A DNA stretch of 35,544 nucleotides from Candidatus Moranbacteria bacterium CG23_combo_of_CG06-09_8_20_14_all_35_22. Its GTDB lineage: Bacteria > Patescibacteriota > Minisyncoccia > Moranbacterales > UBA2206. The position numbers were made by a program, and so were the translations under genes. Of this stretch, positions 9,161 through 23,325 are shown in pieces; position 1 is the first letter of the stretch; each line of letters starts with the position of its first letter. The stretch covers positions 1 through 35,544 of the forward strand of contig PCRW01000053.1 in assembly GCA_002772115.1 (NCBI GenBank), written 5' to 3'. A model generated the notes under the pieces. It did no database searches and was not told where the DNA came from. It worked only from the letters and a program-made list of their open reading frames with translations.

Positions 9161-9517
9161 ATGATAAAATTTTCAAAACAATACGATTTAGAAAAAAGAA
9201 CTGGAGATTTCGGCATAGAAATCATAAAATTTTGTAAAACATCTCAACAAGATATTATAACAAAACCAATCTTAAACCAACTAATAAGATCGGGAACAAG
9301 TATTGGCGCTAATTATTGCGAAGCTAATAATGCCAGTTCTAAAAAAGATTTTAAGAATAAAATTTTTATCTGTAAAAAAGAATGTCAAGAAACAAAACAT
9401 TGGCTAAGGATGTCATCAGAATGTCTGCCTGAAAGAAAAGAAGAAATAAGAATTCTCTGGAAAGAATGTCAAGAGCTTACTATGATTTTCCAAAAAATAA
9501 TAAATTCTATGCAATAA
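9161..9517 (+). CDS. Four-helix-bundle protein ('23S rRNA-intervening-sequence protein' / Avd-like family)
   Basis: 118 aa. Hallmark blocks QLIRSGTSIGANYCEANNASSKKDFKNKIFICKKECQETKHWLRM, characteristic of this family. Confidence 0.85.
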   Translation: MIKFSKQYDLEKRTGDFGIEIIKFCKTSQQDIITKPILNQLIRSGTSIGANYCEANNASSKKDFKNKIFICKKECQETKHWLRMSSECLPERKEEIRILWKECQELTMIFQKIINSMQ

Positions 9518-9542
9518 TTGAAAATTGAAAATTGAAAATTCC
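9516..9542. repeat. Right arm: (attgaaa)x3 heptamer repeat
   Basis: aattgaaaattgaaaattgaaaattcc, the reverse complement of the caattttca motifs at 9135-9157. Confidence 0.55.
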
Positions 9543-9551
9543 ATAATACAC

Positions 9552-11771
9552 ATGTCTCAACAAACCCACATAAAAACAAATACCTATAAAATATTCCTAG
9601 TAATCTTTTTTCTTCTAGTGTTTGGTTTTGGGTTTGGGAAAGGGGAGAAGGCAAAGGCAGATGATGCAGATGATATTGGTGATTGTTCTTATAAATGTTC
9701 ATGGTATACACCTCTAGATAGTTTTGGCTATAAAAAAGAAGGAATTAAATCTAGTGAATGTTTTGACATATGTAAAAATCCAACAAAAAATGAATGCAAT
9801 GAAGATTTAATAGCTAAAGGTGATGGTTATTTTACACAACAGTATTGTTTATTTGATAAAGCTGGCGATTTTAGTCCTACCAAAACAGTACCGACATCTG
9901 GAAAATCCACCTCTTGTTCCGGCACAGATTGGGTATCCCACCCAGTAGACTGTTCTCTCCTTATGCTTCTTAATTTTTTTATATGGCTAATGCAATTAGC
10001 TAGTGCTCTCTTTGGCTGGATAATGGTTCCTGATAACATTACTACTATTCTTAGTAGTAAAGCAATTTACAACGCTTGGACATTAGTGCGCGATACGCTA
10101 AATGTTTTCTTTATTATGTTTTTGCTTTTTTCCGCTTTTGCCACCGTTTTTCAAATTGACAAATACAGCTACAAAAAAACACTATTAATGATTGTCCTTA
10201 TGGCGCTTTTAGTCAATTTTAGCTTCCCAATTTCTCGATTTATCATCGATATTTCCAATATGATGATGTTTTATTTTGCCAGCGCTTTAGATATTCCCAT
10301 TGAAGATGGAAAAATAATGGTTGGTTTTGCCAGTGCCGCTAAATTACCGGGAATTCTTTATCAAAATCTAGGCAATGCCGGAACAGCTCTACTTGCAGCC
10401 GTTATTTTTGTTTTTATTTTCACCGTAACTATCTTGACTATTTCCGTTCTTTTCCTTATTCGCACCATTGCCTTGGCAATTTTAATTGTTTTTTCTTCGC
10501 TGGCTTTTGTCGGCACTGCCATTCCACCACTTTCTTCTTATGCCAGTGACTGGTGGAAGAAACTTTTCAGTTATGCTTTTTTTGGACCAGTGATGCTTTT
10601 TATGATGTATATTGCATCATATTTAATGAATGAGATTGGAAGCACAGGAACAGCTACTATGGAAAAAATCGCCACCGCAAATTCAACAATTCCAGAATTA
10701 ATTGCTAATATGTCTTTTTTTGCCATCCCGATCGTCCTTCTTTGGCTCGGTCTCGGTGTCGCTCAATCAATGAGCATCGCCGGCGCCAGCATGGTCGTCG
10801 GCAAAGCGCAAGGGTTCATGAAAGGGGCAGGGAAGTGGACAGCAGGAGCACCTTGGAAAGTTGCTAAAATGTCTGGTATCCCAGGTGGAGCACAAGCGGG
10901 CTGGAAAAATTTCAGAAAAACTGGAAAATTATTTGGTGGAAAAGTGCCTCTTTATGGCGGATCTGACGCACAAGAAGCAAGAGAAGCAAAATTTGGTGGA
11001 GTATTTAAAGATGGTAGAAAGGGTTGGACAGAGGCTAAAGTTGAACTAGAAAGAACAAGAGCAAATAAACTTAGAAAAGATTGGAAAGATCAAGGCGCTA
11101 TTGATAAAGATTCTGTTTATAAAAAATTGGAAAGTACGAATCCAACAGAACAAAAAGCTGCTGCTCTAGAAATAGCTGAAAATCATAGTTTTGAAAGTTA
11201 TGAACAATTCAAAAAAGCTTCCACAGCTATCGGCAATGATCCTGTTTTCAAAAAAATATTTGATGATAAAGCAAAAGAAAAACATATTAACTTTGTTGCT
11301 AAAGCTAAAATTGAGGAGGAAGAGAAAAAAACAGGAAAACCTCTTAATTATAATGAAAAACAAGACATTTACAATGAACATTTTGATAAGCTTGATAATA
11401 AGAAATGGGCTTCTCAAATAAATCTAATGCCAAAAGACGAAAAGGGTAAGCCATTAGAAGAAAGTGAATTTGTCAAAGAATATATCAAAGAAAATATTGC
11501 GTCACATTACCCCACTCATCAAGATATTTTCAAAAATCTAAAAGGCGTCAATAAAAAACAATGGGCTGATGCGGGTTTAGCGCCAACTGAAAAAAGAAAT
11601 AGCGATGAAACATCTCAATCCGCTAGAAGCAATGAAGATATTCAAAGAGAAATGAAACAAAAAAATCAAGAAAGAATGGATAATGAAAATGAATTCAAAC
11701 AATCACATGAAGACATACAAAAAGAAAGAGCAAGAAAAGCACAAGAAGAAATAAATAAACAAAATATTTAA
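9552..11771 (+). CDS. VirB6/TrbL-like polytopic membrane protein with a Cys-rich exodomain and a long Lys/Glu-rich C-terminal tail
   Basis: Signal/TM, then a Cys-rich ~100-aa segment, about 7 TM helices and a ~300-aa highly charged tail. Sits upstream of the PrgI-like and VirB4 genes. The call rests on topology and context, not on a recognised motif. ATG at 9552 preferred over the TTG at 9525, which lies in the repeat. Confidence 0.5.
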   Translation: MSQQTHIKTNTYKIFLVIFFLLVFGFGFGKGEKAKADDADDIGDCSYKCSWYTPLDSFGYKKEGIKSSECFDICKNPTKNECNEDLIAKGDGYFTQQYCLFDKAGDFSPTKTVPTSGKSTSCSGTDWVSHPVDCSLLMLLNFFIWLMQLASALFGWIMVPDNITTILSSKAIYNAWTLVRDTLNVFFIMFLLFSAFATVFQIDKYSYKKTLLMIVLMALLVNFSFPISRFIIDISNMMMFYFASALDIPIEDGKIMVGFASAAKLPGILYQNLGNAGTALLAAVIFVFIFTVTILTISVLFLIRTIALAILIVFSSLAFVGTAIPPLSSYASDWWKKLFSYAFFGPVMLFMMYIASYLMNEIGSTGTATMEKIATANSTIPELIANMSFFAIPIVLLWLGLGVAQSMSIAGASMVVGKAQGFMKGAGKWTAGAPWKVAKMSGIPGGAQAGWKNFRKTGKLFGGKVPLYGGSDAQEAREAKFGGVFKDGRKGWTEAKVELERTRANKLRKDWKDQGAIDKDSVYKKLESTNPTEQKAAALEIAENHSFESYEQFKKASTAIGNDPVFKKIFDDKAKEKHINFVAKAKIEEEEKKTGKPLNYNEKQDIYNEHFDKLDNKKWASQINLMPKDEKGKPLEESEFVKEYIKENIASHYPTHQDIFKNLKGVNKKQWADAGLAPTEKRNSDETSQSARSNEDIQREMKQKNQERMDNENEFKQSHEDIQKERARKAQEEINKQNI

Positions 11772-13030: not shown

Positions 13031-13426
13031 ATGTTATTTAACGTCCCACAATTCATCGACATCGAAGATAAGATTGTTGGTCCACTTACCGCCAAGCAAC
13101 TTGGCTGGCTGGGCATTGCCGGCGTTTTGCTTTTGATTTTCTGGAGCACGCTCACTTTTTCCACTTTTCTTCCGCTGGCTTTCATCACACTGGGAATTTT
13201 TGGTGCGTTGGCATTTTACCGACCGTACAACCAACCCCTTTTGAATTTTTTGATGTCAGGCGTAAATTTTTTTCTAAAACCAAAAATCTATGTTTGGAAG
13301 CGATATTATGATAGTATGAAAGCAGTCAAAAAAACTGAAAAAACAACCGAAGAAATTATTGTCAAAAGAAAAGTTTTAGATAATAAAAAATTAGAAGAAT
13401 TGGCGAAAAGACTAAATCAGAAATAG
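13031..13426 (+). CDS. PrgI family protein (VirB3-like small T4SS membrane component)
   Basis: MLFNVPQFIDIEDKIVGPLTAKQLGWLGIAG followed by two TM helices is the characteristic PrgI-family N-terminus. Lies upstream of VirB4. Confidence 0.75.
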   Translation: MLFNVPQFIDIEDKIVGPLTAKQLGWLGIAGVLLLIFWSTLTFSTFLPLAFITLGIFGALAFYRPYNQPLLNFLMSGVNFFLKPKIYVWKRYYDSMKAVKKTEKTTEEIIVKRKVLDNKKLEELAKRLNQK

Positions 13427-13554: not shown

Positions 13555-14244
13555 ATGGAATTTCTACACTCAAAAAAACTCTCCACCGAACCATCATCTT
13601 CACCTACTCAAAAATATTTGGATGTAGCCGAAGTGAAAGATGATGTGATTGTTTTGAAATCGGGCGCTCTGCGTTCCATTTTGGCTGTGTCCGCTATAAA
13701 TTTTGATCTAAAATCCACTGACGAACAAGAAGCTATCATTTCTCAATATCAAAATTTTCTCAACTCCGTCGATTTTCCAGTGCAAATTTTGATCAGCTCA
13801 AGAAAATTAGATATGCGAAATTATTTTGAATTTATCACTAGCAAAGAAAAAACTCAATCTAGCGAACTTCTCCGACTTCAACTTAGCGAGTATAAAAATT
13901 TCATTGAACAATTAGTCAAGGGCTCGGATATTATGGAAAAAAATTTCTACATCATCGTGCCATTTTCACCGATTGAAAATAAAAAAAAAAGTTTTTTCTC
14001 TAACATTGGCAGTTTATGGAACCCCCAAAAAAACATTTTAGAAAAAAGAGAGAATTTTGAAACTTATAAAAATCAACTCCTCCAAAGAATTGATCACATC
14101 ATCGCCGCTTTGTCTGGCATCGGTCTGCGCATTGTTCCCCTCAAGACTGAAGAACTAATTGAATTGTTATTTGATTCATACAATCCGGAAATTTTCAACG
14201 CCACCGGATTGAAAGATGTGAGTAAATTAGAACTAACGAAATAG
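13555..14244 (+). CDS. Hypothetical T4SS-associated cytoplasmic protein (possible ATPase-less VirB4 N-domain-like protein)
   Basis: 229 aa, no TM helix and no Walker motifs. The segment YLDVAEVKDDVIVLKSGALRSILAVSAINFDLKSTDEQEAIISQYQNFLNSVDFPVQILI resembles the pattern at the N-terminus of VirB4/TrbE/TraC proteins (from memory). Confidence 0.4.
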   Translation: MEFLHSKKLSTEPSSSPTQKYLDVAEVKDDVIVLKSGALRSILAVSAINFDLKSTDEQEAIISQYQNFLNSVDFPVQILISSRKLDMRNYFEFITSKEKTQSSELLRLQLSEYKNFIEQLVKGSDIMEKNFYIIVPFSPIENKKKSFFSNIGSLWNPQKNILEKRENFETYKNQLLQRIDHIIAALSGIGLRIVPLKTEELIELLFDSYNPEIFNATGLKDVSKLELTK

Positions 14245-14352
14245 TCCTTTACTAAATACGAAATAAGCGAAATACGAAAGAATTGTTTTTTTAGTATTTA
14301 GTTTATTTAGTATTTAGTAAAATTTAGTATTTCGCTCATTTCGTAGTTCATA
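14245..14352. repeat. Intergenic repeat unit C (diverged member of the same family)
   Basis: tcctttactaaatacgaaataagcgaaatacgaaag ... tttagtatttagtaaaatttagtatttcgctcatttcgtag. Confidence 0.7.
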
Positions 14353-14360
14353 AAGAAATT

Positions 14361-16199
14361 ATGTTAAATATATTCAAAAAAAACACTCCTTCCTCCAACG
14401 CACCCGTCAAGCCGGCTAAGCCGAAAAATGAAATTTTGGAGTCGGAAAAATATTATCAAGAAGGCGTTTCTCGTCTCAATGATCTTTTGGCACCGGCTGC
14501 GATAAAAATAATGCCTAGATTTATTCGCGTGGGAGAAACTTTAGCACAAACTATTTTTGTGGTGGCTTATCCAAGATTTCTCAACAGTAATTGGTTTTCT
14601 CCCATTATAAACATTGATCTACCGATTGATATTTCAATGTTCATCCACCCCATTGAAACTTATGATATTTTGAAAGATCTCAAAAAAAATGCTACCCGTG
14701 TTGAATCCCAAATTCACATTGAACAAGAAAAAGGGATGATCAACGACCCAGCCTTGGAAACAGCCAAACAAGATATTGATGAATTGCGAAGTAATCTCCA
14801 GCAAGGCACGGAAAAGTTTTTCCGTTTTGGGCTCTACATCACTGCCTACGGTGAAAATGAAAAAGAATTATCCGACATCTCCCGTTCCATCGAAGCAATT
14901 TTGGAAGCCCAACTGGTTTATGTTAAGCCGGCCATTTTCAAATCCGAACAAGGCTTCAATTCCACTCTTCCGCTGGCAAATGACGAATTGGATATTGGAA
15001 GTAGTATGAACAGCGCTCCGCTTTCTACCACTTTCCCTTTTGTTTCTTCCACCCTTTCTTCCAATGAAGGCATTCTTTATGGCATAAATCGCCATAACAA
15101 TAGTTTGATTATTTTTGACCGTTTCAAAATGGAAAATGCCAATATGGTAGTTTTTGCTAAATCTGGTGCTGGAAAAAGTTATACGATAAAATTGGAAGTT
15201 TTGCGCTCACTAATGATGGGAACGGATGTGATCATAATTGATCCGGAAAATGAATATAAACATTTGTGCGAAACTGTCAATGGCACTTTTATAAAAATTT
15301 CCCTCAATTCTAATAATCATCTCAACCCATTTGACCTTCCGCACATCAAAGAAGACGAGGATCCTGAAGATGTCCTTCGCAACAACATCGCCAATCTTTT
15401 GGGGCTACTGCATATTATGCTGGGCAACATCACCCCCGAAGAAGATTCAATCTTGGGCCGAGCCATCAAAGAAACTTATGCTGTCCGCGACATTTCTCCT
15501 CAAACTGATTTCAATGCTCTTTCCAAAGAATCTTATCCGACAATGTCTGATTTGTATCAAATTTTGCGCAGTATGGATGGCGGAGAAAATTTGGCCATTC
15601 GAATGGAAAAATATACAGAGGGAATTTTTTCTGGCTTTCTTAATAATGTCACCAATGTGAGCGTGGACAATCAAATGATGGTTTTCAATATCCGCGATAT
15701 GGAAGAAGAACTTCGACCAATTGCGATGTATATTGTGATGCAATTTATCTGGAATGAAATGCGCACCACTCTCAAAAAAAGAATTGTCTTGGCGGATGAA
15801 GCTTGGGTAATGATGAAATATGATGACGCCGCTTCTTTTATGTTCGGTATTGCTAAACGATGTCGAAAATATTATACGGGCCTCACCACCGTCACTCAAG
15901 ATGTTAATGACTTTTTGAGTTCTCGCTATGGTAAAGCGATTGTGACAAATTCCTCTATTCAACTGCTTTTGAAACAATCACCAGCCGCTGTTGATGTCAT
16001 CAGTGAAACCTTTTACCTGACCGATCAAGAAAAATTTTTGCTTTTAGAATCAAATGTAGGAGAAGGAATTTTTTTCGCCGGCACCAAACATGTCGCCATT
16101 AAGGTTGTCGCTTCCTATTCCGAAGACCAGATAATCACCACCGATCCCTCGCAACTACTGGAAATTGAAAAAGCTAAGAAAGAGTTGGAAGAAGAATAA
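14361..16199 (+). CDS. virB4: VirB4/TrbE/PrgJ-type T4SS ATPase
   Basis: 612 aa. Walker A FAKSGAGKSYT, IIDPENEY, Walker B IVLADEAWVMM. N-terminal domain with YPRFLNSNWFSPII block as in Gram-positive VirB4 homologues. Confidence 0.9.
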   Translation: MLNIFKKNTPSSNAPVKPAKPKNEILESEKYYQEGVSRLNDLLAPAAIKIMPRFIRVGETLAQTIFVVAYPRFLNSNWFSPIINIDLPIDISMFIHPIETYDILKDLKKNATRVESQIHIEQEKGMINDPALETAKQDIDELRSNLQQGTEKFFRFGLYITAYGENEKELSDISRSIEAILEAQLVYVKPAIFKSEQGFNSTLPLANDELDIGSSMNSAPLSTTFPFVSSTLSSNEGILYGINRHNNSLIIFDRFKMENANMVVFAKSGAGKSYTIKLEVLRSLMMGTDVIIIDPENEYKHLCETVNGTFIKISLNSNNHLNPFDLPHIKEDEDPEDVLRNNIANLLGLLHIMLGNITPEEDSILGRAIKETYAVRDISPQTDFNALSKESYPTMSDLYQILRSMDGGENLAIRMEKYTEGIFSGFLNNVTNVSVDNQMMVFNIRDMEEELRPIAMYIVMQFIWNEMRTTLKKRIVLADEAWVMMKYDDAASFMFGIAKRCRKYYTGLTTVTQDVNDFLSSRYGKAIVTNSSIQLLLKQSPAAVDVISETFYLTDQEKFLLLESNVGEGIFFAGTKHVAIKVVASYSEDQIITTDPSQLLEIEKAKKELEEE

Positions 16200-16278: not shown

Positions 16279-16665
16279 ATGATAAAGAAAATTGATTTGA
16301 TTTATGCTGATGAATGTTATGAAATAATGGGAATAGCTTTCGATGTTTTTAAGAAATTAGGATTTGGTCATAAAGAAAATATTTATCAGAAAGCGCTAGC
16401 AACTAATTTTAAAGAAAGAAATTTTAAATTTAAAGAACAGTTGCGATACAATTTGAAATACAAGGATGAAACTTTGGGAGTTTATATTTTAGATTTTTTG
16501 CTTTTTGATAAAATTGTTTTGAAAATAAAACAAAAGGATTTCATTTCTGAAAAAGATATAGATCAAGTTTATAGGTATCTTAGAGCCACGCATTTAAAGC
16601 TCGGAATAATACTTACTTTTACCAAAAAAGGTGCCTGTTTTAAAAGAATAGTTAATTTAAAATAA
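16279..16665 (+). CDS. GxxExxY family protein (PD-(D/E)XK nuclease-like superfamily)
   Basis: 128 aa. Literal motif G-HK-E-NI-Y in FGHKENIYQKAL, and YILDFLLFDKIVLKIK as in this family. Confidence 0.85.
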   Translation: MIKKIDLIYADECYEIMGIAFDVFKKLGFGHKENIYQKALATNFKERNFKFKEQLRYNLKYKDETLGVYILDFLLFDKIVLKIKQKDFISEKDIDQVYRYLRATHLKLGIILTFTKKGACFKRIVNLK

Positions 16666-17271: not shown

Positions 17272-17943
17272 ATGCAACATTATCCTAAAAAAAATCTATC
17301 CTCTTTTCTGCTGGAAAATAAAGAAACTGTCATCACTTCTTTGGTGATTGTTTTTTGTCTAGCTTTATCTGTTTTTTTTCCAACAAAAAATTCTGCCCAA
17401 CTTTTCACGAGCAATATTTTTTTCTTAGTTATTATTCCGATTCTTTATTATAAATTAATTTTAAAAAGAAAAATATCGGAACTAGGTTTGGTATTAAATG
17501 ACAAAAAAATTGGATTTTTTTGGGGAGCTTTGATGTTTCTTGTCAATCTGATAATTTTTTATCTTCTTTATCAGTTTACCGATTTTAACCACAATTATCT
17601 TCTTTCCTCCTATATTGTGCATAACTTTTGGATTTTCCTGTTTTATGAGATTTTAGTGGCTAATATGTTTGTTTTTATCCAAGAATTTTTTTGGCGAGGC
17701 TTTATTTTACTTTATTTTTCTAGAAAAATTGGCCTTTTGGCGATTTTTTTGCAATTTATTATTTTTGTAGGAGTGATACTTCTAATCTCACAAAATTCTT
17801 TTTGGCAAATGGCGCCCACTCTCGTAATTTCTCTAACTTCTGGTATAATTGTATATAAGAGCCGATCAATTTTTTATTCTTGGATTTTTTCCTTACTGTC
17901 AATTTTAATTTTAGATAGTTTTATAATTTATCATTTAAAATGA
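17272..17943 (+). CDS. CPBP (CAAX protease/Abi)-like polytopic membrane protein with degenerate catalytic motifs
   Basis: IQEFFWRGFIL resembles CPBP motif 1 (EExxxR), but with QE. The positions expected for the FxxxH and HxxxN motifs carry no His. About 6-7 TM helices. Confidence 0.4.
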   Translation: MQHYPKKNLSSFLLENKETVITSLVIVFCLALSVFFPTKNSAQLFTSNIFFLVIIPILYYKLILKRKISELGLVLNDKKIGFFWGALMFLVNLIIFYLLYQFTDFNHNYLLSSYIVHNFWIFLFYEILVANMFVFIQEFFWRGFILLYFSRKIGLLAIFLQFIIFVGVILLISQNSFWQMAPTLVISLTSGIIVYKSRSIFYSWIFSLLSILILDSFIIYHLK

Positions 17944-20708
17944 AAAATAAAAAAACCAAAAAAATAAATATTCTTTCCCACATTTTACTTATCCTTACAT
18001 TGTTTCTTTCTCCAATCAGCACTGCTTGGGCTATTGATGTAAACAAAATTATGGGCGTCCAATCACCTACTGAATTTATAGATAAAATTTTTTCCGATCT
18101 CGGCGTGGACAAAGAGCAAGTGAGATACGGCGCCCAAACTTTCAATGTCGCCAACAAAAAAAAGACTCCTCCCCAAGTTACGCTTTTTTTCAATCCAGCT
18201 AATCCAGACGAAGGGGAGAAAGTAACTGTCACCGCTTCTCCCAGCTATTTTCTCAACAATCCAGAAGAACTGTATTACACTTGGTTTTTAAAAACAGCAA
18301 ATTGCACTGATGAGGAAACAGATGACGATGATTATACATATAATTCAGAATGTGATTTGAATAATGACGGCGAAGTTGATATAGAAGATTACAAAATAAA
18401 AGCTATGAGAATCATTGTTAATGGCGGGTTTGATTATACTAGTGTTGACTATTCATCCAGTACTGACAGCAACAATGATAGTTATGATGCTTTTTCCGGT
18501 GGCAATGATCAAGAAGGTAAGACGGCATATTGTTATGTTCATGATATAAAAACAGGAGAAGAATATGCTCTGCCAAGTTGCGGTGATAATAAAACAGAAC
18601 AGCATCTTTTTGCTCACGCTGAATATGAAAATTTTATCGATAAAGACGGCAACCAAATTGATTTAGATGAAGAAACCGGCGATGATGATTTTGGCAGAGA
18701 TGAAGAAAAATTCTGGCATACTGATCCCAACAGCAATGACACTGCCAATTTGGGCCATTCCGATGAAGCTAATGTTGCCGGACTGGGCGTTTTGACCTTT
18801 TCTTGGAATTATCAAAAAGGCGACAAGGTCGGCGTAGTAGTGGAAGGAATTTCCACCGAACCAACCCAAACTGAAGACTCTTCATATAAAACTATGTGGG
18901 CAATGAACAAAGGAAATTACACTCTTGATGCTGATAATAATATTGGCAATGATTATCCCCAAACTACCACTACCACTACTATTACTGAAGATACTCCAGA
19001 AGTCGGTCAAACAACAACTGTCACCGTCACCACTCTTGAAGAATTATCAAACATTGTCAATGAAATAGCTACCATTGAAACGACCATTACCACTCAAACA
19101 GTAGTAACAGATTCCGCTGATCCAACCACCATAATAAGCGATGAAACAGAGGTTTCCAATTCAGCTGAAATAGAAAATATGGTGGGAGACTTTGATATTA
19201 GTAATGACGATATCGGATCTATAGAAAAACCTTCTGATCTTAACGATTTTCTTTACGACGCATTAGTTTCTCCCCAAGAAAATAGCGCTGGAAGCGACAA
19301 ACTTGATATCAGCCTTTCTTATTCTCCCACCAATCCAATCAATGATTCTTCTGGCGAAAGCGGAGACACTTTGATAATCCAATCTTCTATTCCTAACGCC
19401 AAAGATAATAATTATTTGCAATACAACTGGCAGGTTTTTTCCAGTGATGAAGTGAATCCTAATGACTGGGGAACTCCTTTGCTAAAATCAGATTTGAAAG
19501 AATCCACCCAGACAACTGGACTAGGCATTGATACTTTCAAATTTAAATTAGCTTTAAATGAACCAAAAAAATATCTGCGCATTCTTTTGACGGTCACGGA
19601 AAATGTCGGCGAAGAATATCCACGCTCCAGCCGACAAGATATTATCATCCCCATTATTTCTATGGATGCAAATGACCAAATAAGCACCCACAGTGTTTTG
19701 GCCGAAACAGATTCTATCCGTTCTGTTGAGGAAAATCCTTCCGGAGTAAATCTTAAGCTAGACGAAGAAATTTGCACAACAAATAATATAGATAGAGCGA
19801 TTTGTCCCGTAACAAAAAGTCAAATAATTGGCTTGTCTTTTCCAGCAGAGGACGAAGATAATTTTCCGTCCGGCATAACAGATTTTCTTTGGACCATTGA
19901 CGGTAAGCCAATCTCTTATTCTTTTTGTTTTTTTGATAATTGTAATCCAGAAAAACAAACTAACACCGCCTATTTTCCAATTCTCAAAGAAATCGGCGAG
20001 CAATATACTATCGGCTTTACTGCTACCAGCGCAGAAGGAGAAAAAATAAATTTGACCAAAATTTTCAAAGTCGTTGATCCAGAAATTGAGATTAATTTTG
20101 TTGATGATGTTTGTCCAAAAACCAATTCTAGTGATATTTGCCATCGAAATGTTTTAGGCAAATATTTTGATGTAAATAGCCAAGAATTTACCGATTATAG
20201 CAAACTTAATTTTTGGGCACGAAATGATTCTGACATCAAACTGGAAGCGGAAGTTACAGGCTTTTCTGCTTCGCCAGAAAGTTATAGCTGGAATATCGAC
20301 GGCCAAAATATTTCTGCTTCCAATGCTGATCTATATGGCTTTACAATTGATAGCGAAGGAATTCTCACTTTGCCTCCCAAAGAAATTCAAGGGGAAAGCT
20401 ATAATATAACAGTCGGCACTCTTTACACTCAAGAAAATTTAGTGAAAAAAGCGCTCAAAGATATTTGGGGCGTGACTTATAATCAGTTTTACGAAAAAAC
20501 CATTGCAGATGAAGCTATCATCACTATGATGGATGCCGAGGAAATTACTCAAGGACCGGCCAAAAAAATCTTCGCTTCTGTCTATTCCTCTGTTCCCAGT
20601 TATCTCGCTTTTCTTCTGCGAATAATCCTTACCATTTCCCTAATTTTATTCACCACTAAATTGATTTTCTCATTCTCCGCACCAATTAATTCGCGAGAAG
20701 AAAACTAA
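17940..20708 (+). CDS. 922-aa acidic, Thr-rich surface protein with signal peptide and C-terminal TM anchor
   Basis: Its ATG overlaps the previous stop (ATGA at 17940-17943). Signal peptide ...SPISTAWA. Dockerin/EF-hand-like DLNNDGEVDIED. Recurrent Y.W..DG strands (YYTWF, YNWQVF, FLWTIDGK, YSWNIDGQ) suggest Ig/PKD-like domains. TTTTTTIT run. C-terminal hydrophobic helix. Confidence 0.65.
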   Translation: MKNKKTKKINILSHILLILTLFLSPISTAWAIDVNKIMGVQSPTEFIDKIFSDLGVDKEQVRYGAQTFNVANKKKTPPQVTLFFNPANPDEGEKVTVTASPSYFLNNPEELYYTWFLKTANCTDEETDDDDYTYNSECDLNNDGEVDIEDYKIKAMRIIVNGGFDYTSVDYSSSTDSNNDSYDAFSGGNDQEGKTAYCYVHDIKTGEEYALPSCGDNKTEQHLFAHAEYENFIDKDGNQIDLDEETGDDDFGRDEEKFWHTDPNSNDTANLGHSDEANVAGLGVLTFSWNYQKGDKVGVVVEGISTEPTQTEDSSYKTMWAMNKGNYTLDADNNIGNDYPQTTTTTTITEDTPEVGQTTTVTVTTLEELSNIVNEIATIETTITTQTVVTDSADPTTIISDETEVSNSAEIENMVGDFDISNDDIGSIEKPSDLNDFLYDALVSPQENSAGSDKLDISLSYSPTNPINDSSGESGDTLIIQSSIPNAKDNNYLQYNWQVFSSDEVNPNDWGTPLLKSDLKESTQTTGLGIDTFKFKLALNEPKKYLRILLTVTENVGEEYPRSSRQDIIIPIISMDANDQISTHSVLAETDSIRSVEENPSGVNLKLDEEICTTNNIDRAICPVTKSQIIGLSFPAEDEDNFPSGITDFLWTIDGKPISYSFCFFDNCNPEKQTNTAYFPILKEIGEQYTIGFTATSAEGEKINLTKIFKVVDPEIEINFVDDVCPKTNSSDICHRNVLGKYFDVNSQEFTDYSKLNFWARNDSDIKLEAEVTGFSASPESYSWNIDGQNISASNADLYGFTIDSEGILTLPPKEIQGESYNITVGTLYTQENLVKKALKDIWGVTYNQFYEKTIADEAIITMMDAEEITQGPAKKIFASVYSSVPSYLAFLLRIILTISLILFTTKLIFSFSAPINSREEN

Positions 20709-20725
20709 AAACTAAAACAAACCCA

Positions 20726-21649
20726 ATGAAAACAAAAATTAAAATATTCTTTCTAGCTTTATTATTTTTAAATTTAATTCCTGCTTTTTGTTTGGCAGCG
20801 GATACATATGTTCCGATGGAAAAAATTCCGGGGTTTGAGGATCCGGCTGATTTTCCGACCTATTTGATGAACATTTATAAATTTGGCCTTGGCGCTATTG
20901 GAGTTTCGGCGATGTTTATGATTATGATTGGCGGATATATGTATCTCACTTCCGCCGGCAACACCGCCCAAACCGGCAAAGCCAAAGGAGTTATTTTCGA
21001 TGCCATCGCCGGACTAATTTTAGCCCTAGTTTCTTATGTTCTACTTTGGACAATTAATCCAGATTTAGTGAAATTTAAATCAATAACTAGTGGTACTACC
21101 ACTGGCGAAACAGGAACTACCGGCACAAGCGAATATGCGGGTTATAATGCCGCTTGCCCAGATCCAACTTCTAAAGTTCCTATTGATTTCTCTGAATCAC
21201 CAACAATAAGCGCCAGTTCTACTTGCAAAAACTTAATTCCTAATGATGTTAATGGAGTTTCAAAAGAAATATTAAGAACAATAGCCCAATTAGAATCATC
21301 TTGTGGAACAGATTCAAATGCAGAAAATTCGTCAGCAGAATGTTGTGGGATAATGCAACTCAAACCTGATACAGCAGGAATTTCCTGCTCAGAACTAGTT
21401 TCAAATAATACTGCGTCCATAGAAGCAGCCGCCAAATATATAAAAGATAATGCATCAAATCATGATGATGATCCTGTCAAAATTTTTGCTGGCTATAATA
21501 GTGGCTATGGCACAAGCGGTAGTGGCTCTCTTGCCCCAAGTGTAGATTGTCCAGGAAGTTTAAAATTTCAATGTTGTTATGACCCACAAGAACTAGATGA
21601 ATCAATCCATTACGCGTGGAAAGGTAATGGGATATATAAAGGTCAATAA
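20726..21649 (+). CDS. TrbC/VirB2-like T4SS pilin module fused to a C-terminal lytic transglycosylase (SLT, VirB1-like) domain
   Basis: Signal peptide plus two TM helices with IGGYMYLTSAGN..AKGVIFDAIAGLILAL, homologous to the next ORF. Thr/Gly linker. SLT motifs: QLESS (catalytic Glu-Ser), GIMQL and GYNSG. Confidence 0.7.
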   Translation: MKTKIKIFFLALLFLNLIPAFCLAADTYVPMEKIPGFEDPADFPTYLMNIYKFGLGAIGVSAMFMIMIGGYMYLTSAGNTAQTGKAKGVIFDAIAGLILALVSYVLLWTINPDLVKFKSITSGTTTGETGTTGTSEYAGYNAACPDPTSKVPIDFSESPTISASSTCKNLIPNDVNGVSKEILRTIAQLESSCGTDSNAENSSAECCGIMQLKPDTAGISCSELVSNNTASIEAAAKYIKDNASNHDDDPVKIFAGYNSGYGTSGSGSLAPSVDCPGSLKFQCCYDPQELDESIHYAWKGNGIYKGQ

Positions 21650-21658
21650 AAAAATCTT

Positions 21659-22108
21659 ATGTCAACTAAAATAAAACTCCTTATTTTTTTGTTATTTATT
21701 GGAATTTTTTTGCCAGTTTTTTCGACTTATTCCGCTGGACTTGTGCCTTGTGGATTAAACGAAGGAAAAGCGGAAGAAATGGCTCCTTGCACGCTTTGCC
21801 ACCTTATTATTGGAATTTTCAATATTTTTTCTTGGTTTAAAACTATCCTCATCACTGTCGCTGCGGTGGGAATTTTCATTGCGGGAGTGATGTATATCAT
21901 TTCTTCCGGAGACGAAGAAATGATGAAACGCGCCAAAAGCTTTCTCGCCACCAGTCTCACAGGCTTTACTATAGTTTTGGGTGCTTGGCTGATTGTCAAT
22001 TCCGTAATGTGGATTCTTGCCTATGATATTAAAAACTTAGACATCGAACAAGAAAATTGGTATACTTTCTCTTGCGATACAACCAGCACTGCTGATCCAA
22101 ATAAATAA
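21659..22108 (+). CDS. TrbC/VirB2-like T4SS pilin of the type common in Patescibacteria
   Basis: Signal peptide, GLVPCG...APCTLCH Cys motif, then two TM helices with AGVMYIISSGDEEMMKRAKSFL..GFTIVLGAWLIVNSV. Confidence 0.7.
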   Translation: MSTKIKLLIFLLFIGIFLPVFSTYSAGLVPCGLNEGKAEEMAPCTLCHLIIGIFNIFSWFKTILITVAAVGIFIAGVMYIISSGDEEMMKRAKSFLATSLTGFTIVLGAWLIVNSVMWILAYDIKNLDIEQENWYTFSCDTTSTADPNK

Positions 22109-22114
22109 ATTTTT

Positions 22115-23269
22115 ATGTCCATTCTTAAAAAAATATTTTTTTTATCTCTGTTTTTTCTTTTTCTCTCCACGCTTTTTTGGGGTATTTATATGCTGTCTTT
22201 CAAAAAAAATTTGCCAGTGGAAAATAAGTCGTCAATTGCAAAAAATCCACCCTCTTCTTTGGAAAATCCAGACGATAAACCTGCCCCTGAAGCAAAAATT
22301 TCCGTCATTTCTCAAGAATCCGTTCTTTCCCCCGTTCTTTCTCCGGATGAAAATTCTATTTGGTATTATTCTCTTTCCGGCGAACTGAAAGAAATTGATT
22401 TTTTTGGAAAAACTACTAAAAAACTCACTACTAAAAAAATTATCAATCTCATTGGAGCAATTTGGTCTCCAGATAAATCAAAAGCTCTCCTTGAAATCGG
22501 ACAAAATCATAAAACAGATTATCTTTTGCTTTTTGATCGCCCCAAAGACCAACTTATATTCTTAAACAAAAATATTAACTGCACTTCTTGGCTTGCATCT
22601 TCCGACAGAATAATTTACAAATATTTCGATTCAAAAAACAACCGGGGTTCACTCAACATTTCCGCTCCAGATGGAAGTAATTGGAAAAAACTACTTGATT
22701 TGCCTCACGATAAAATTGTTTTTTCCCAAATTCCCTTGTCCGGACTTATTTCCTTTTGGAATAACGGCGATGCTTATTATCCCACTCTTTTTCAGTCTAT
22801 GTCTCTAATCGGCGAGAATACAAAAACATTATCTCAAAACTACTTCGGTGCGGATTATCTTTGGAATCAATCTGGCAACCGAGTTTTAACTAGCCAAACA
22901 GACGCCCAAGGCGGAACTAAAATGCAACTAGGAGTAATGAACTACAACGGTGGAGAATACAAAAATCTGGGACTACCAACTTTTGTTTCCAAATGTCTTT
23001 GGTCAAAAGACAACGAAAATATTTATTGCGCTCTGCCAGGAAACATTCCGGACAATTCAATTTTGCCTAATGATTATAAACTGGGAAAATTCACCACCAC
23101 CGACACTTTTTGGAAAATCAACATTACTACGAGCGAAAAAACCCGCCTGCTGGAAACAAAAGACATCTCGGATTCTTTTGACGCCTCCGATTTTTTCGCC
23201 AGCACTGATGAAAGTTTGATTTTTTTCGTCAACAAAAAAGATGGGAAATTATACAAAATAGTTTTGTAG
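22115..23269 (+). CDS. Membrane-anchored TolB-like (PD40/beta-propeller-like) protein
   Basis: N-terminal TM helix. Repeated SPD...-type strands (LSPDENSIWYYS, IWSPDKSKALLE, WSKDNENIYCA) resemble PD40 repeats. Confidence 0.45.
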   Translation: MSILKKIFFLSLFFLFLSTLFWGIYMLSFKKNLPVENKSSIAKNPPSSLENPDDKPAPEAKISVISQESVLSPVLSPDENSIWYYSLSGELKEIDFFGKTTKKLTTKKIINLIGAIWSPDKSKALLEIGQNHKTDYLLLFDRPKDQLIFLNKNINCTSWLASSDRIIYKYFDSKNNRGSLNISAPDGSNWKKLLDLPHDKIVFSQIPLSGLISFWNNGDAYYPTLFQSMSLIGENTKTLSQNYFGADYLWNQSGNRVLTSQTDAQGGTKMQLGVMNYNGGEYKNLGLPTFVSKCLWSKDNENIYCALPGNIPDNSILPNDYKLGKFTTTDTFWKINITTSEKTRLLETKDISDSFDASDFFASTDESLIFFVNKKDGKLYKIVL

Positions 23270-23271
23270 AA

Positions 23272-23325
23272 GAGACAACTTGGAGACTAAATCTCCAATT
23301 GGAGATTTAGTCTCCAAGTTGTCTC
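23272..23325. terminator. 54-nt perfect palindrome (38-mer copy 2 extended by gagacaac/gttgtctc) between convergent operons
   Basis: Lies between the stop of the + locus (23269) and the stop of the - glycan cluster (23330). No canonical U-tract, so a terminator role is inferred from position only. Confidence 0.55.

Follow-up and report, generated by a model that had tools for sequence, protein, structure and literature searches.

How an ultrasmall bacterium breaches the envelope of its host is a question on which one gene of a Candidatus (Ca.) Moranbacteria genome bears. We analyzed a 35,544-nucleotide stretch (hereafter, the window; contig PCRW01000053.1, assembly GCA_002772115.1) from Ca. 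Moranbacteria bacterium CG23_combo_of_CG06-09_8_20_14_all_35_22, an ultrasmall organism that is probably host-dependent. In this stretch, a single fusion gene physically ties an enzyme that cuts cell walls to the pilin part of a type IV secretion system (T4SS). Such a system is essential for epibiotic growth of the one genetically tractable Patescibacterium, and its role is called "completely unknown" (PMC11665869). It has also been speculated in print that lytic transglycosylases of Patescibacteria act on host envelopes. On the evidence below, we consider it rather probable that the fusion protein is a dedicated peptidoglycan-cleaving component of a chromosomal Ca. Moranbacteria T4SS, built on a VirB2-type pilin module.

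A preliminary reading made from the DNA letters and their open reading frames (ORFs) alone, the sequence-only reading, had described the gene as a pilin-like module joined to an SLT domain, and our analysis confirmed that description. The gene belongs to a tightly packed operon and lies 17 nt downstream of the gene for a 922-aa protein and 9 nt upstream of the gene for a 149-aa pilin (Table 1). Homologue clusters spanning at least 89% of the fusion protein made up 62 of 120 among the matches listed, and the fusion is therefore no assembly artefact. An AlphaFold2 (AF2) model computed with the homologue alignment as input had a mean predicted local distance difference test (pLDDT) score of 87.5, mostly above 90 in the C-terminal domain. 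It comprised a signal helix (residues 2-22), a hairpin of two helices (43-75 and 80-110), a disordered stretch (117-129), and a compact helical domain (138-306). Hydropathy analysis gave segments at residues 3-29, 50-74, and 84-115. The signal-peptide cleavage site was assigned by eye; in homologues, a conserved Y-x-P-M-E motif begins a few residues past the signal-peptide segment. The module then runs from YVPMEKIPGF through the first helix, the loop TSAGNTAQTGKAKG, and the second helix to INPDLV, and in the AF2 model, a short basic loop (TSAGN..GKAKG) lies between the two helices. The Thr/Gly-rich linker that had been read after the pilin-like part stands at its expected place and includes the disordered residues.

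Profile searches connected the module to the T4SS pilins. The Pfam family T4SS_pilin (PF18895, gathering score of 26.6) matched residues 45-106 of the fusion protein (E = 1.9e-4, 21.9 bits) and scored 24.8 bits with the module alone. It matched 29 of 29 diverse module sequences (best E = 6.9e-10), and its gathering score was passed by several orthologues of the fusion. Residues ~1-115 had been called "clearly" paralogous to the stand-alone pilin encoded next door. The paralogy stood: a hidden Markov model (HMM) of the module, built from 96 homologues and run against all six-frame ORFs of the window, found only the fusion ORF (2e-47) and the neighboring pilin (8.5e-8). The pairwise clarity did not, because BLASTP aligned the fusion N terminus with the neighbor at 22% identity over 124 aa (E = 4e-5), a remote match. 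Taken together, the pairwise and HMM comparisons, both of which the sequence-only reading had proposed, gave a significant T4SS-pilin relationship. The neighbor itself also had a weak match to NF045849 (pilin-like conjugal transfer).

A transitive sequence link leads from the window module to bona fide conjugative pilins (TrbC/VirB2) through P0207, a homologue with two modules followed by SLT. Its second module shares 45% identity with that of the window (E = 4e-23), and the same stretch exceeds the cut-off of PF04956 TrbC/VirB2 (33.1 bits vs. 27.9). Two further features of the pilin family were found, a signal peptide followed by two hydrophobic helices with a short basic loop (hydropathy and AF2) and a gene encoded with VirB4 and other T4SS genes. 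A third, that of a small protein consisting only of the hairpin, was not: here, 190 aa of linker and enzyme follow.

The C-terminal part is an SLT domain of family GH23. Pfam SLT (PF01464) matched residues 176-263 (E = 1.3e-9, 38.1 bits, exceeding the gathering score of 21.3), and all three signatures picked out by the sequence-only reading were recovered: QLESS (with E190), GIMQL (208-212), and GYNSG, within AGYNSG (255-260). In an alignment of 48 full-length homologues that are 34-75% identical, E190, Q211, and six Cys are invariant, whereas conservation reaches 90% or more at M210, A255, Y257, N258, and G260. Conservation of the catalytic Glu, which had been singled out as a point to check, thus extends to every homologue aligned, and the six Cys probably form three stabilizing disulfides. 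The family profile searched against PDB sequences matched MltC (6.4e-11), then MltE, Slt70, and MltF; the same search also matched goose (g)-type lysozymes, phage T7 gp16, a tape-measure protein, and the type III secretion system (T3SS) enzyme EtgA. With the full-length model as query, the top Foldseek matches in the PDB were all lytic transglycosylases (Slt, MltF, and MltD; probability ~1, E = 2.5e-3 to 5e-2), so that structure prediction of the fusion gave the SLT fold that the motifs had implied. We saw no conserved second acidic residue past the ES motif in the 48-homologue alignment, and this would favor transglycosylase over muramidase chemistry.

The fusion gene is part of a conserved T4SS gene cluster. 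A scan with module alignment A2 covered a single genome for each GTDB species and gave 107 stretches, from which we retained 79 distinct loci; almost all belong to Ca. Moran(i)bacteria or Parcubacteria, and the homologues of the fusion are likewise named Ca. Moranbacteria or Parcubacteria. The gene order is fixed: VirB6-like, p372, PrgI, VirB4N, VirB4, p169 (a small polytopic protein), CPBP-like, p922, the module gene, the stand-alone pilin in some loci, and p384. The same order occurs in L001 and L002, whose fusion proteins are 72% and 37% identical to that of the window, and it is kept in all 41 VirB4-linked species-representative loci, across which VirB4 identity spans 67-99%. Sequence reached 7 kb or more upstream of the module gene in 62 loci; in the 41 of these with VirB4 inside 10 kb, it precedes the module gene by 2.9-6.5 kb (usually 5.3-6.5 kb), and among SLT-cargo genes, 23 of the 24 assessable are VirB4-linked. 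The p922 gene is found 1.4-4.5 kb upstream of the module gene in 62 of 80 loci, p384 adjoins the module gene in 67 of 80, and VirB6-like homologues occur in 27 loci. The VirB4 ATPase of the window matches NF045971, CD1110-family VirB4 (362.6 bits; cut-off, 325), and its N-part matches VirB4 N-terminal regions (TraC-like/TrsD-like). Pfam scans of all neighboring genes revealed no other recognizable wall hydrolase in the cluster, and we recognized no relaxase or coupling protein in the window. The window has a G+C content of ~35% and also encodes dnaA, dnaN, yidC, and jag as well as O-antigen ligase (Wzy-type), glycosyltransferase, and flippase genes, which together indicate a chromosomal, origin-proximal locus.

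Table 1. Features of the T4SS region, with positions in the window and the basis of each assignment
Feature	Position	Strand	Basis
VirB6/TrbL-like polytopic protein, 748 aa, Cys-rich N-terminal ectodomain	9525..11771	+	Hydrophobic segments; L002 syntenic homologue with PF19590 TrbL_3
PrgI/VirB3-like protein	13031..13426	+	PF12666, 37.9 bits
Split VirB4 ATPase	13555..16199	+	229-aa N-part, 13555-14244; 612-aa ATPase, 14361-16199; Pfam TraG P-loop/AAA_10
CPBP/Rce1-like polytopic membrane protein	17272..17943	+	PF02517, 24.1 bits
922-aa secreted protein (p922), C-terminal transmembrane anchor, directly upstream of fusion	17940..20708	+	Transmembrane segments
Pilin-module/SLT fusion gene, 307 aa + stop, ATG start	20726..21649	+	ORF list; Pfam SLT and T4SS_pilin matches; 294 homologues
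Sec signal peptide (predicted), residues 1-24, MKTKIKIFFLALLFLNLIPAFCLA, cleavage before ADTY	20726..20797	+	Hydropathy segment 3-29; AF2 helix 2-22
VirB2/T4SS_pilin-like hairpin module, residues 25-117	20798..21076	+	PF18895; constant length; AF2 helices; transitive PF04956 link
Cargo replacement hot spot	21030..21686	+	Sliding-window DNA identity to L004 of 0.39-0.67; flanks, ~0.85-0.98
Low-complexity Thr/Gly/Ser linker KSITSGTTTGETGTTGTSE, residues 117-135	21074..21130	+	Sequence; AF2 pLDDT <50 for 117-129
GH23/SLT lysozyme-fold domain, residues 138-306, six invariant Cys	21137..21643	+	PF01464; PDB profile matches; AF2 and Foldseek; conservation
Predicted catalytic Glu190 codon (QLESS)	21293..21295	+	Invariant in 48/48 homologues; aligns with ES motif of MltC
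Stand-alone T4SS_pilin paralogue, 149 aa	21659..22108	+	PF18895, 32.7 bits, exceeds gathering score
384-aa membrane-anchored partner (p384), last gene of operon	22115..23269	+	Weak TolB-propeller similarity (NCBIfam)
Perfect 20-bp-stem palindromic hairpin	23276..23321	.	Terminator scan; between convergent T4SS operon and Wzy_C gene

Beyond the window, the module is a general carrier for wall-degrading enzymes across the family, a role that the sequence-only reading had not seen, and the window gene belongs to a large family. Among the 120 best homologues, 96 have a module block of 87-92 aa (mostly 87-90) from Y-x-P-M-E-x-I-P-G to I-N-P-D-L; the C termini that follow it are very different, and extra N- or C-terminal domains occur at both module ends. 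We took a census of the cargo in 91 module genes from GTDB species-representative loci. SLT cargo was assigned to 30 by cargo HMM and Pfam, and SLT_3 lysozyme-like cargo (PF18896) was assigned to 23 by Pfam. Eight carry what may be a LAS/hedgehog-type Zn-peptidase-like domain (class 2), as suggested by a weak PDB profile match on the Zn-binding motif (E of ~3e-3) and by an AF2 model (66 pLDDT) whose top Foldseek match was Sonic hedgehog at E = 0.2. Another seven carry a domain with a conserved H/H/D/H pattern (class 3, or A4), defined by alignment, for which we found no Pfam or PDB sequence match. VanY (two genes) and NlpC/P60 (one) exceed their Pfam cut-offs, small classes with M15-like motifs, read by eye, account for a few of the 91, and eight genes have no cargo (tail of <30 aa). 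The survey of how widely the fusion occurs, suggested from the window alone, thus found SLT on about one-third of module genes and the same module with many other wall hydrolases.

The module alone was also searched against 1.84 billion representative proteins (50%-identity clusters), which gave 17,879 matches at E<=1e-3, of which 1,902 reached E<=1e-10. Only 7 of the 122 new top representatives are 150 aa or shorter, and Pfam placed SLT on 18, SLT_3 on 8, NlpC/P60 on 3, and CHAP on 1 of the 122. In four single loci (L024, L040, L042, and L052), two module genes are present, one with glycosidase and one with peptidase cargo, and in some genomes, a second, divergent pilin gene carries tails of ~180 aa.

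The A4 domain spans ~110 aa, with invariant H92, H97, D104, and H162 and several Cys. It forms the tails in L034, L040, L045, L055, L065, L075, and L076 and in P0143, P0160, P0162, P0199, P0203, P0219, and P0235. It is a candidate for a new metallopeptidase-type wall hydrolase; the LAS-like reading was made by eye only. Other proteins of the family carry the module in tandem: four modules plus SLT in P0121 and P0122, two plus SLT in P0207 and P0224, six PF18895 modules and no cargo in P0181 and P0201, and three with large inserts in P0136. Such proteins could be either processed pilin polyproteins or multihairpin membrane proteins, and they bear on whether these "pilins" polymerize like VirB2. 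A Cys-rich minimotif of ~40 aa (CxC, 20-25 residues, CxxxC, 5-8 residues, YY) is an accessory on module proteins and is sometimes duplicated. It occurs in the N- or C-terminal extensions of P0012, P0062, P0070, P0074, P0090, P0110, P0113, P0130, P0154, P0161, P0186, and P0212, and the VirB6-like protein begins with a related CxxxC...CxxxC segment (residues 54-83).

Comparison of the window with its closest species representative, L004 (Moranbacteria RIFOXYA12_FULL_35_19), showed that cargo is replaced locally between close relatives. At the protein level, VirB4 is 99% identical to that of L004, the pilin module 97%, PrgI 96%, the stand-alone pilin 90%, and p922 and p384 89% each; the SLT tail is 50% identical. 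The hot spot seen in the DNA covers exactly the linker and SLT domain and contains many indels, and DNA identity in the module is 0.93-0.94. The SLT tail of another relative, L005, is 66% identical to that of the window, although its VirB4 is only 93% identical, so that similarity of the cargo is incongruent with genome distance. The downstream pilin and p384 are conserved whatever the cargo. The window and L004 diverge only in the cargo and in the tail of the pilin, and the divergent segment holds no extra gene such as a cognate immunity gene. That pilin tail (21987-22130, compared with L004:10919-11527) is a second variable cassette: the stand-alone pilin has 149 aa in the window and 202 aa in L004, where its tail carries the Cys-rich minimotif, and the remainder has 87-93% DNA identity.

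The best reading of these results is that the fusion protein is a VirB1/PrgK-equivalent hydrolase recruited to the T4SS through its VirB2-type module. The most economical role for it would be as the membrane-anchored VirB1 counterpart required by every monoderm T4SS (PMC12857230), with a pilin paralogue in place of a plain transmembrane helix for its recruitment. We infer the recruitment to the machine, the membrane topology, the enzymatic activity, and the choice of wall alike. After Sec export and removal of the signal peptide, the module would insert as a helical hairpin with the topology of VirB2, both ends facing outward and the basic loop GKAKG in the cytoplasm. The GH23/SLT domain would then lie outside the membrane on a flexible linker of ~20 residues; the signal peptide, the invariant Cys pattern, and the extra domains at both module ends fit an enzyme domain outside the cytoplasm. 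With a pilin paralogue as its anchor, the enzyme should go where the pilin goes: it would join the pool of pilin in the membrane at the VirB4/VirB6 machine and, if a filament is made, would be on that filament as well. By analogy with other wall-crossing machines, local cutting of glycan strands may let the machine or filament cross the cell's own wall. In addition, the enzyme may meet a variable non-self substrate, most plausibly the host cell wall, as suggested by the exchange of cargo between close relatives and by its many chemistries. Cargo polymorphism would be unexpected if only the cell's own unchanging wall were opened, and molecules that confront other organisms typically show it. 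The host wall is, therefore, likely also a substrate; the polymorphism raises the plausibility of this step but is no proof of it.

Several findings weigh against this reading. The fusion protein scores below the PF18895 gathering score, both at full length and as the module alone. When the profile of 29 modules was run against all PDB chains, no VirB2, TraA, or TrbC was matched, only SpaQ at an insignificant E of 2.4; Foldseek matches to the hairpin in the full model were nonspecific (Aeropyrum conjugative pilus 8dfu at E = 6), and we did not use them as evidence. An SLT annotation can conceal a muramidase, as in PrgK (PMC12857230). Among loci with enough flank, about one-third have CPBP-like, p922, module, and p384 genes and no VirB4 within 10 kb, so that the cassette may be separable from the ATPase cluster. 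Exposure on a filament meets additional difficulties. In the same genomes, the module is 76-88% conserved vs. 57-64% for the stand-alone pilin, a difference more in keeping with a membrane anchor that faces the machine than with an exposed subunit of a filament. A 190-aa domain on each subunit is hard to reconcile with the canonical VirB2 lattice, and a T4SS pilus has not been observed in Patescibacteria, although reviews call one possible.

The alternative that best survives, which we regard as possible although improbable, is that the protein acts only as a weapon displayed on a filament. It would be a minor pilin in or at the tip of a T4SS pilus that drills the host wall alone, and the crossing of the cell's own wall would be independent of it. 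A cargo hot spot between near-identical genomes speaks for such a weapon, as do many chemistries at one syntenic position, with glycosidase and peptidase paired in the four loci named above. A major-pilin candidate adjoins the fusion gene, extra domains are tolerated at either end of the module, as they would be if those ends lay on the outside of a filament, and the literature proposal of host-envelope attack by lytic transglycosylases agrees with this role. Against these points stand a pilus that has not been demonstrated, a module more conserved than the stand-alone pilin, and loci (e.g., L002) in which no second pilin is detectable within 10 kb and thus, no major subunit is nearby. Nor does the cluster encode another recognizable hydrolase with which the cell could open its own wall, and the lineage has no known host. 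A wider version of the idea, of which we are similarly doubtful, would give the T4SS of Moranbacteria and Parcubacteria a filament, or else a membrane platform made of pilin, with VirB2-like subunits that bear exchangeable, polymorphic peptidoglycan-degrading "warheads" (lytic transglycosylase, lysozyme, LAS/VanY peptidase, and NlpC/P60 domains) for drilling host walls, with cassettes exchanged as hosts change.

We think it unlikely that the carrier is cleaved off. The hairpin would in that case be an export or maturation leader, cut after I-N-P-x-L at the outer end of helix 2, so that a soluble hydrolase or effector is released and the hairpin becomes an ordinary pilin. I110, N111, P112, and L114 are indeed invariant whatever the cargo, and cargo-less members end 3-16 residues past the INPxL motif, but capping of a helix or a contact in a lattice would explain the motif equally well. 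Boundary processing would also make sense of polyproteins with two to six tandem modules, with or without a terminal SLT (P0121, P0122, P0181, P0201, and P0207), although there is no direct evidence for cleavage. A protease would seem to be at hand in the CPBP/Rce1-like gene, which is found two genes upstream in 57 of 80 loci. However, 58 orthologues of its product share neither the canonical EExxxR, FxxxH, and HxxxN residues nor any conserved His; we, therefore, downgraded it as a processing protease, and no other protease is evident in the cassette. By its residue pattern, the CPBP-like protein is probably noncatalytic. It may be a noncatalytic partner of the hydrolase, for which SpdC of Staphylococcus aureus with the hydrolase SagB is a parallel, and we note this as a lead only.

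Still less credible, to our minds, is a housekeeping autolysin, a surface-anchored hydrolase for growth or division on a two-helix anchor that lies near the T4SS by chance or through coexpression at oriC. The assessable loci in which a module gene has no VirB4 within 10 kb (approximately one-third) would fit, as would the adjoining dnaA, dnaN, yidC, and cell-envelope polysaccharide genes. However, the anchor is specifically of the T4SS_pilin family with a pilin paralogue adjacent, the VirB4 gene order is fixed in 41 species representatives over 67-99% VirB4 identity, and replacement between strains whose flanking genes are 89-99% identical is unexpected for a self-wall enzyme. Finally, a phage-derived lysis module (a holin-like or signal-anchor-release-type segment plus endolysin from a prophage remnant) would account for a membrane segment next to a lysozyme fold and for the profile matches to phage T7 gp16 and a tape-measure protein, but we rejected it on genomic context as extremely improbable, given a window without phage genes, chromosomal synteny conserved across the lineage, a cleavable signal peptide ahead of the hairpin, and a module in the pilin family.

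A hydrolase recruited through a pilin module has its nearest counterparts in monoderm T4SSs. Their hydrolases are membrane-anchored, and all known VirB1 homologues there have extracellular domains (PMC12857230); the same 2025 review bears out the statement in the sequence-only reading that transmembrane-anchored hydrolases exist in Gram-positive T4SSs. Like the fusion, the monoderm VirB1-class enzymes (PrgK of pCF10, TraG of pIP501, Orf14 of Tn916, and TcpG of pCW3) are membrane-anchored with extracellular peptidoglycan-degrading domains, including SLT/GH23, and are encoded within an MPF-FATA-type cluster with PrgI and CD1110-family VirB4. They have a plain, uncleaved N-terminal transmembrane anchor and usually two or three enzymatic domains (extra CHAP or LytM), whereas the fusion has a cleavable signal peptide, a two-helix pilin-family hairpin, and one enzymatic domain, with alternative enzymes in its relatives. 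Agrobacterium VirB1 and VirB2 likewise bring a GH23 lytic transglycosylase and a two-helix signal-peptide pilin to one T4SS. In that system, they are separate and VirB1 is soluble in the periplasm; here, they are a single polypeptide in a monoderm. VirB2 is small and is cyclized in the T and RP4 systems.

Within the Patescibacteria, T4SSs are related to monoderm MPF-FATA systems, often lie near dnaA, have VirB2-like PF18895 pilins, and are without relaxase (PMC10633639, PMC12102498); the cluster in the window is of this described type. The T4SS of Ca. Southlakia epibionticum (SEML1_0006-0019) is, like that of the window, chromosomal and dnaA-proximal, with PF18895 pilins beside VirB4, PrgI, and VirB6 (PMC10633639), and it is essential. 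In published accounts of these systems, both for Southlakia and for 3,035 surveyed genomes, pilins are dealt with apart from VirB1-like hydrolases, and in the survey, most Patescibacteria with VirB2 have no recognizable VirB1 (PMC12102498).

Two more distant comparisons apply. FlgJ and EtgA-EscI each tie an enzyme that cuts the wall to a structural or axial part, so that cutting is confined to the passage of the filament; this is analogy, not homology, since the machines and carrier folds are unrelated to those of the fusion. FlgJ is a flagellar rod cap fused to a muramidase, and EtgA is a T3SS lytic transglycosylase recruited by the inner rod EscI. Polymorphic effectors with peptidoglycan hydrolases as cargo (Tae/Tge of the type VI secretion system, X-Tfe of the Xanthomonas/Stenotrophomonas T4SS, and LXG/Rhs toxins) share with the fusion family a conserved delivery module, a linker, and interchangeable C-terminal enzymes, with cargo replaced between close strains. 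Unlike them, the fusion has no covarying immunity gene, and where they use a soluble recognition domain, its conserved part is a membrane hairpin.

The surrounding cluster has features of its own. The split of VirB4 is kept in L001 and L002. Two small genes (9161-9517 and 16279-16665) interrupt the cluster and encode a 23S rRNA-intervening-sequence/bAvd-type four-helix-bundle protein (IVP type) and a PD-(D/E)XK_3 nuclease-like protein; an IVP-type gene is found elsewhere in L001, and neither is among the called genes in L002, so that on their distribution, the two would appear to behave like mobile insertions. The palindromic hairpin past the last gene is probably a bidirectional terminator. 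The sub-cassettes with no VirB4 gene in the 10 kb upstream occur in more divergent genomes (L052, L059, L062-L068, L071, L075-L077, and L080).

The existence of Patescibacteria T4SSs, of PF18895 pilins, and of T4SS-associated SLT enzymes was already known. What is new is a T4SS wall hydrolase with a pilin module as its anchor and a modular enzyme, the carrier-plus-cargo family to which it belongs, and the hot spot. A literature search, outside of which most subscription-journal papers fell, found no description of a pilin-hydrolase fusion, of the cargo diversity, or of the hot spot, and the parts of PMC12102498 covered (the text and the searched supplements) do not mention the fusion or cargo polymorphism. 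For some homologues, precomputed Pfam annotations already contain the pilin-plus-SLT architecture implicitly. The novelty of the fusion would be considerably greater if it sat on a filament and were directed against the host.

The design is family-wide, with ~1,900 clusters (50% identity) at E<=1e-10 and cargo on most of the top representatives inspected. Hydrolases hidden in pilin-family genes may, at least in this lineage, be a reason why the survey of Patescibacteria genomes found VirB2 but rarely VirB1. The cargo hot spot is a concrete handle on host specificity, the uncharacterized cargo classes are candidates for new wall-degrading enzymes, and the module with its linker is a natural scaffold for surface or filament display. 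If the warhead reading were true, it would give the T4SS of Patescibacteria a concrete job, that of opening the host envelope for the acquisition of nutrients or DNA.

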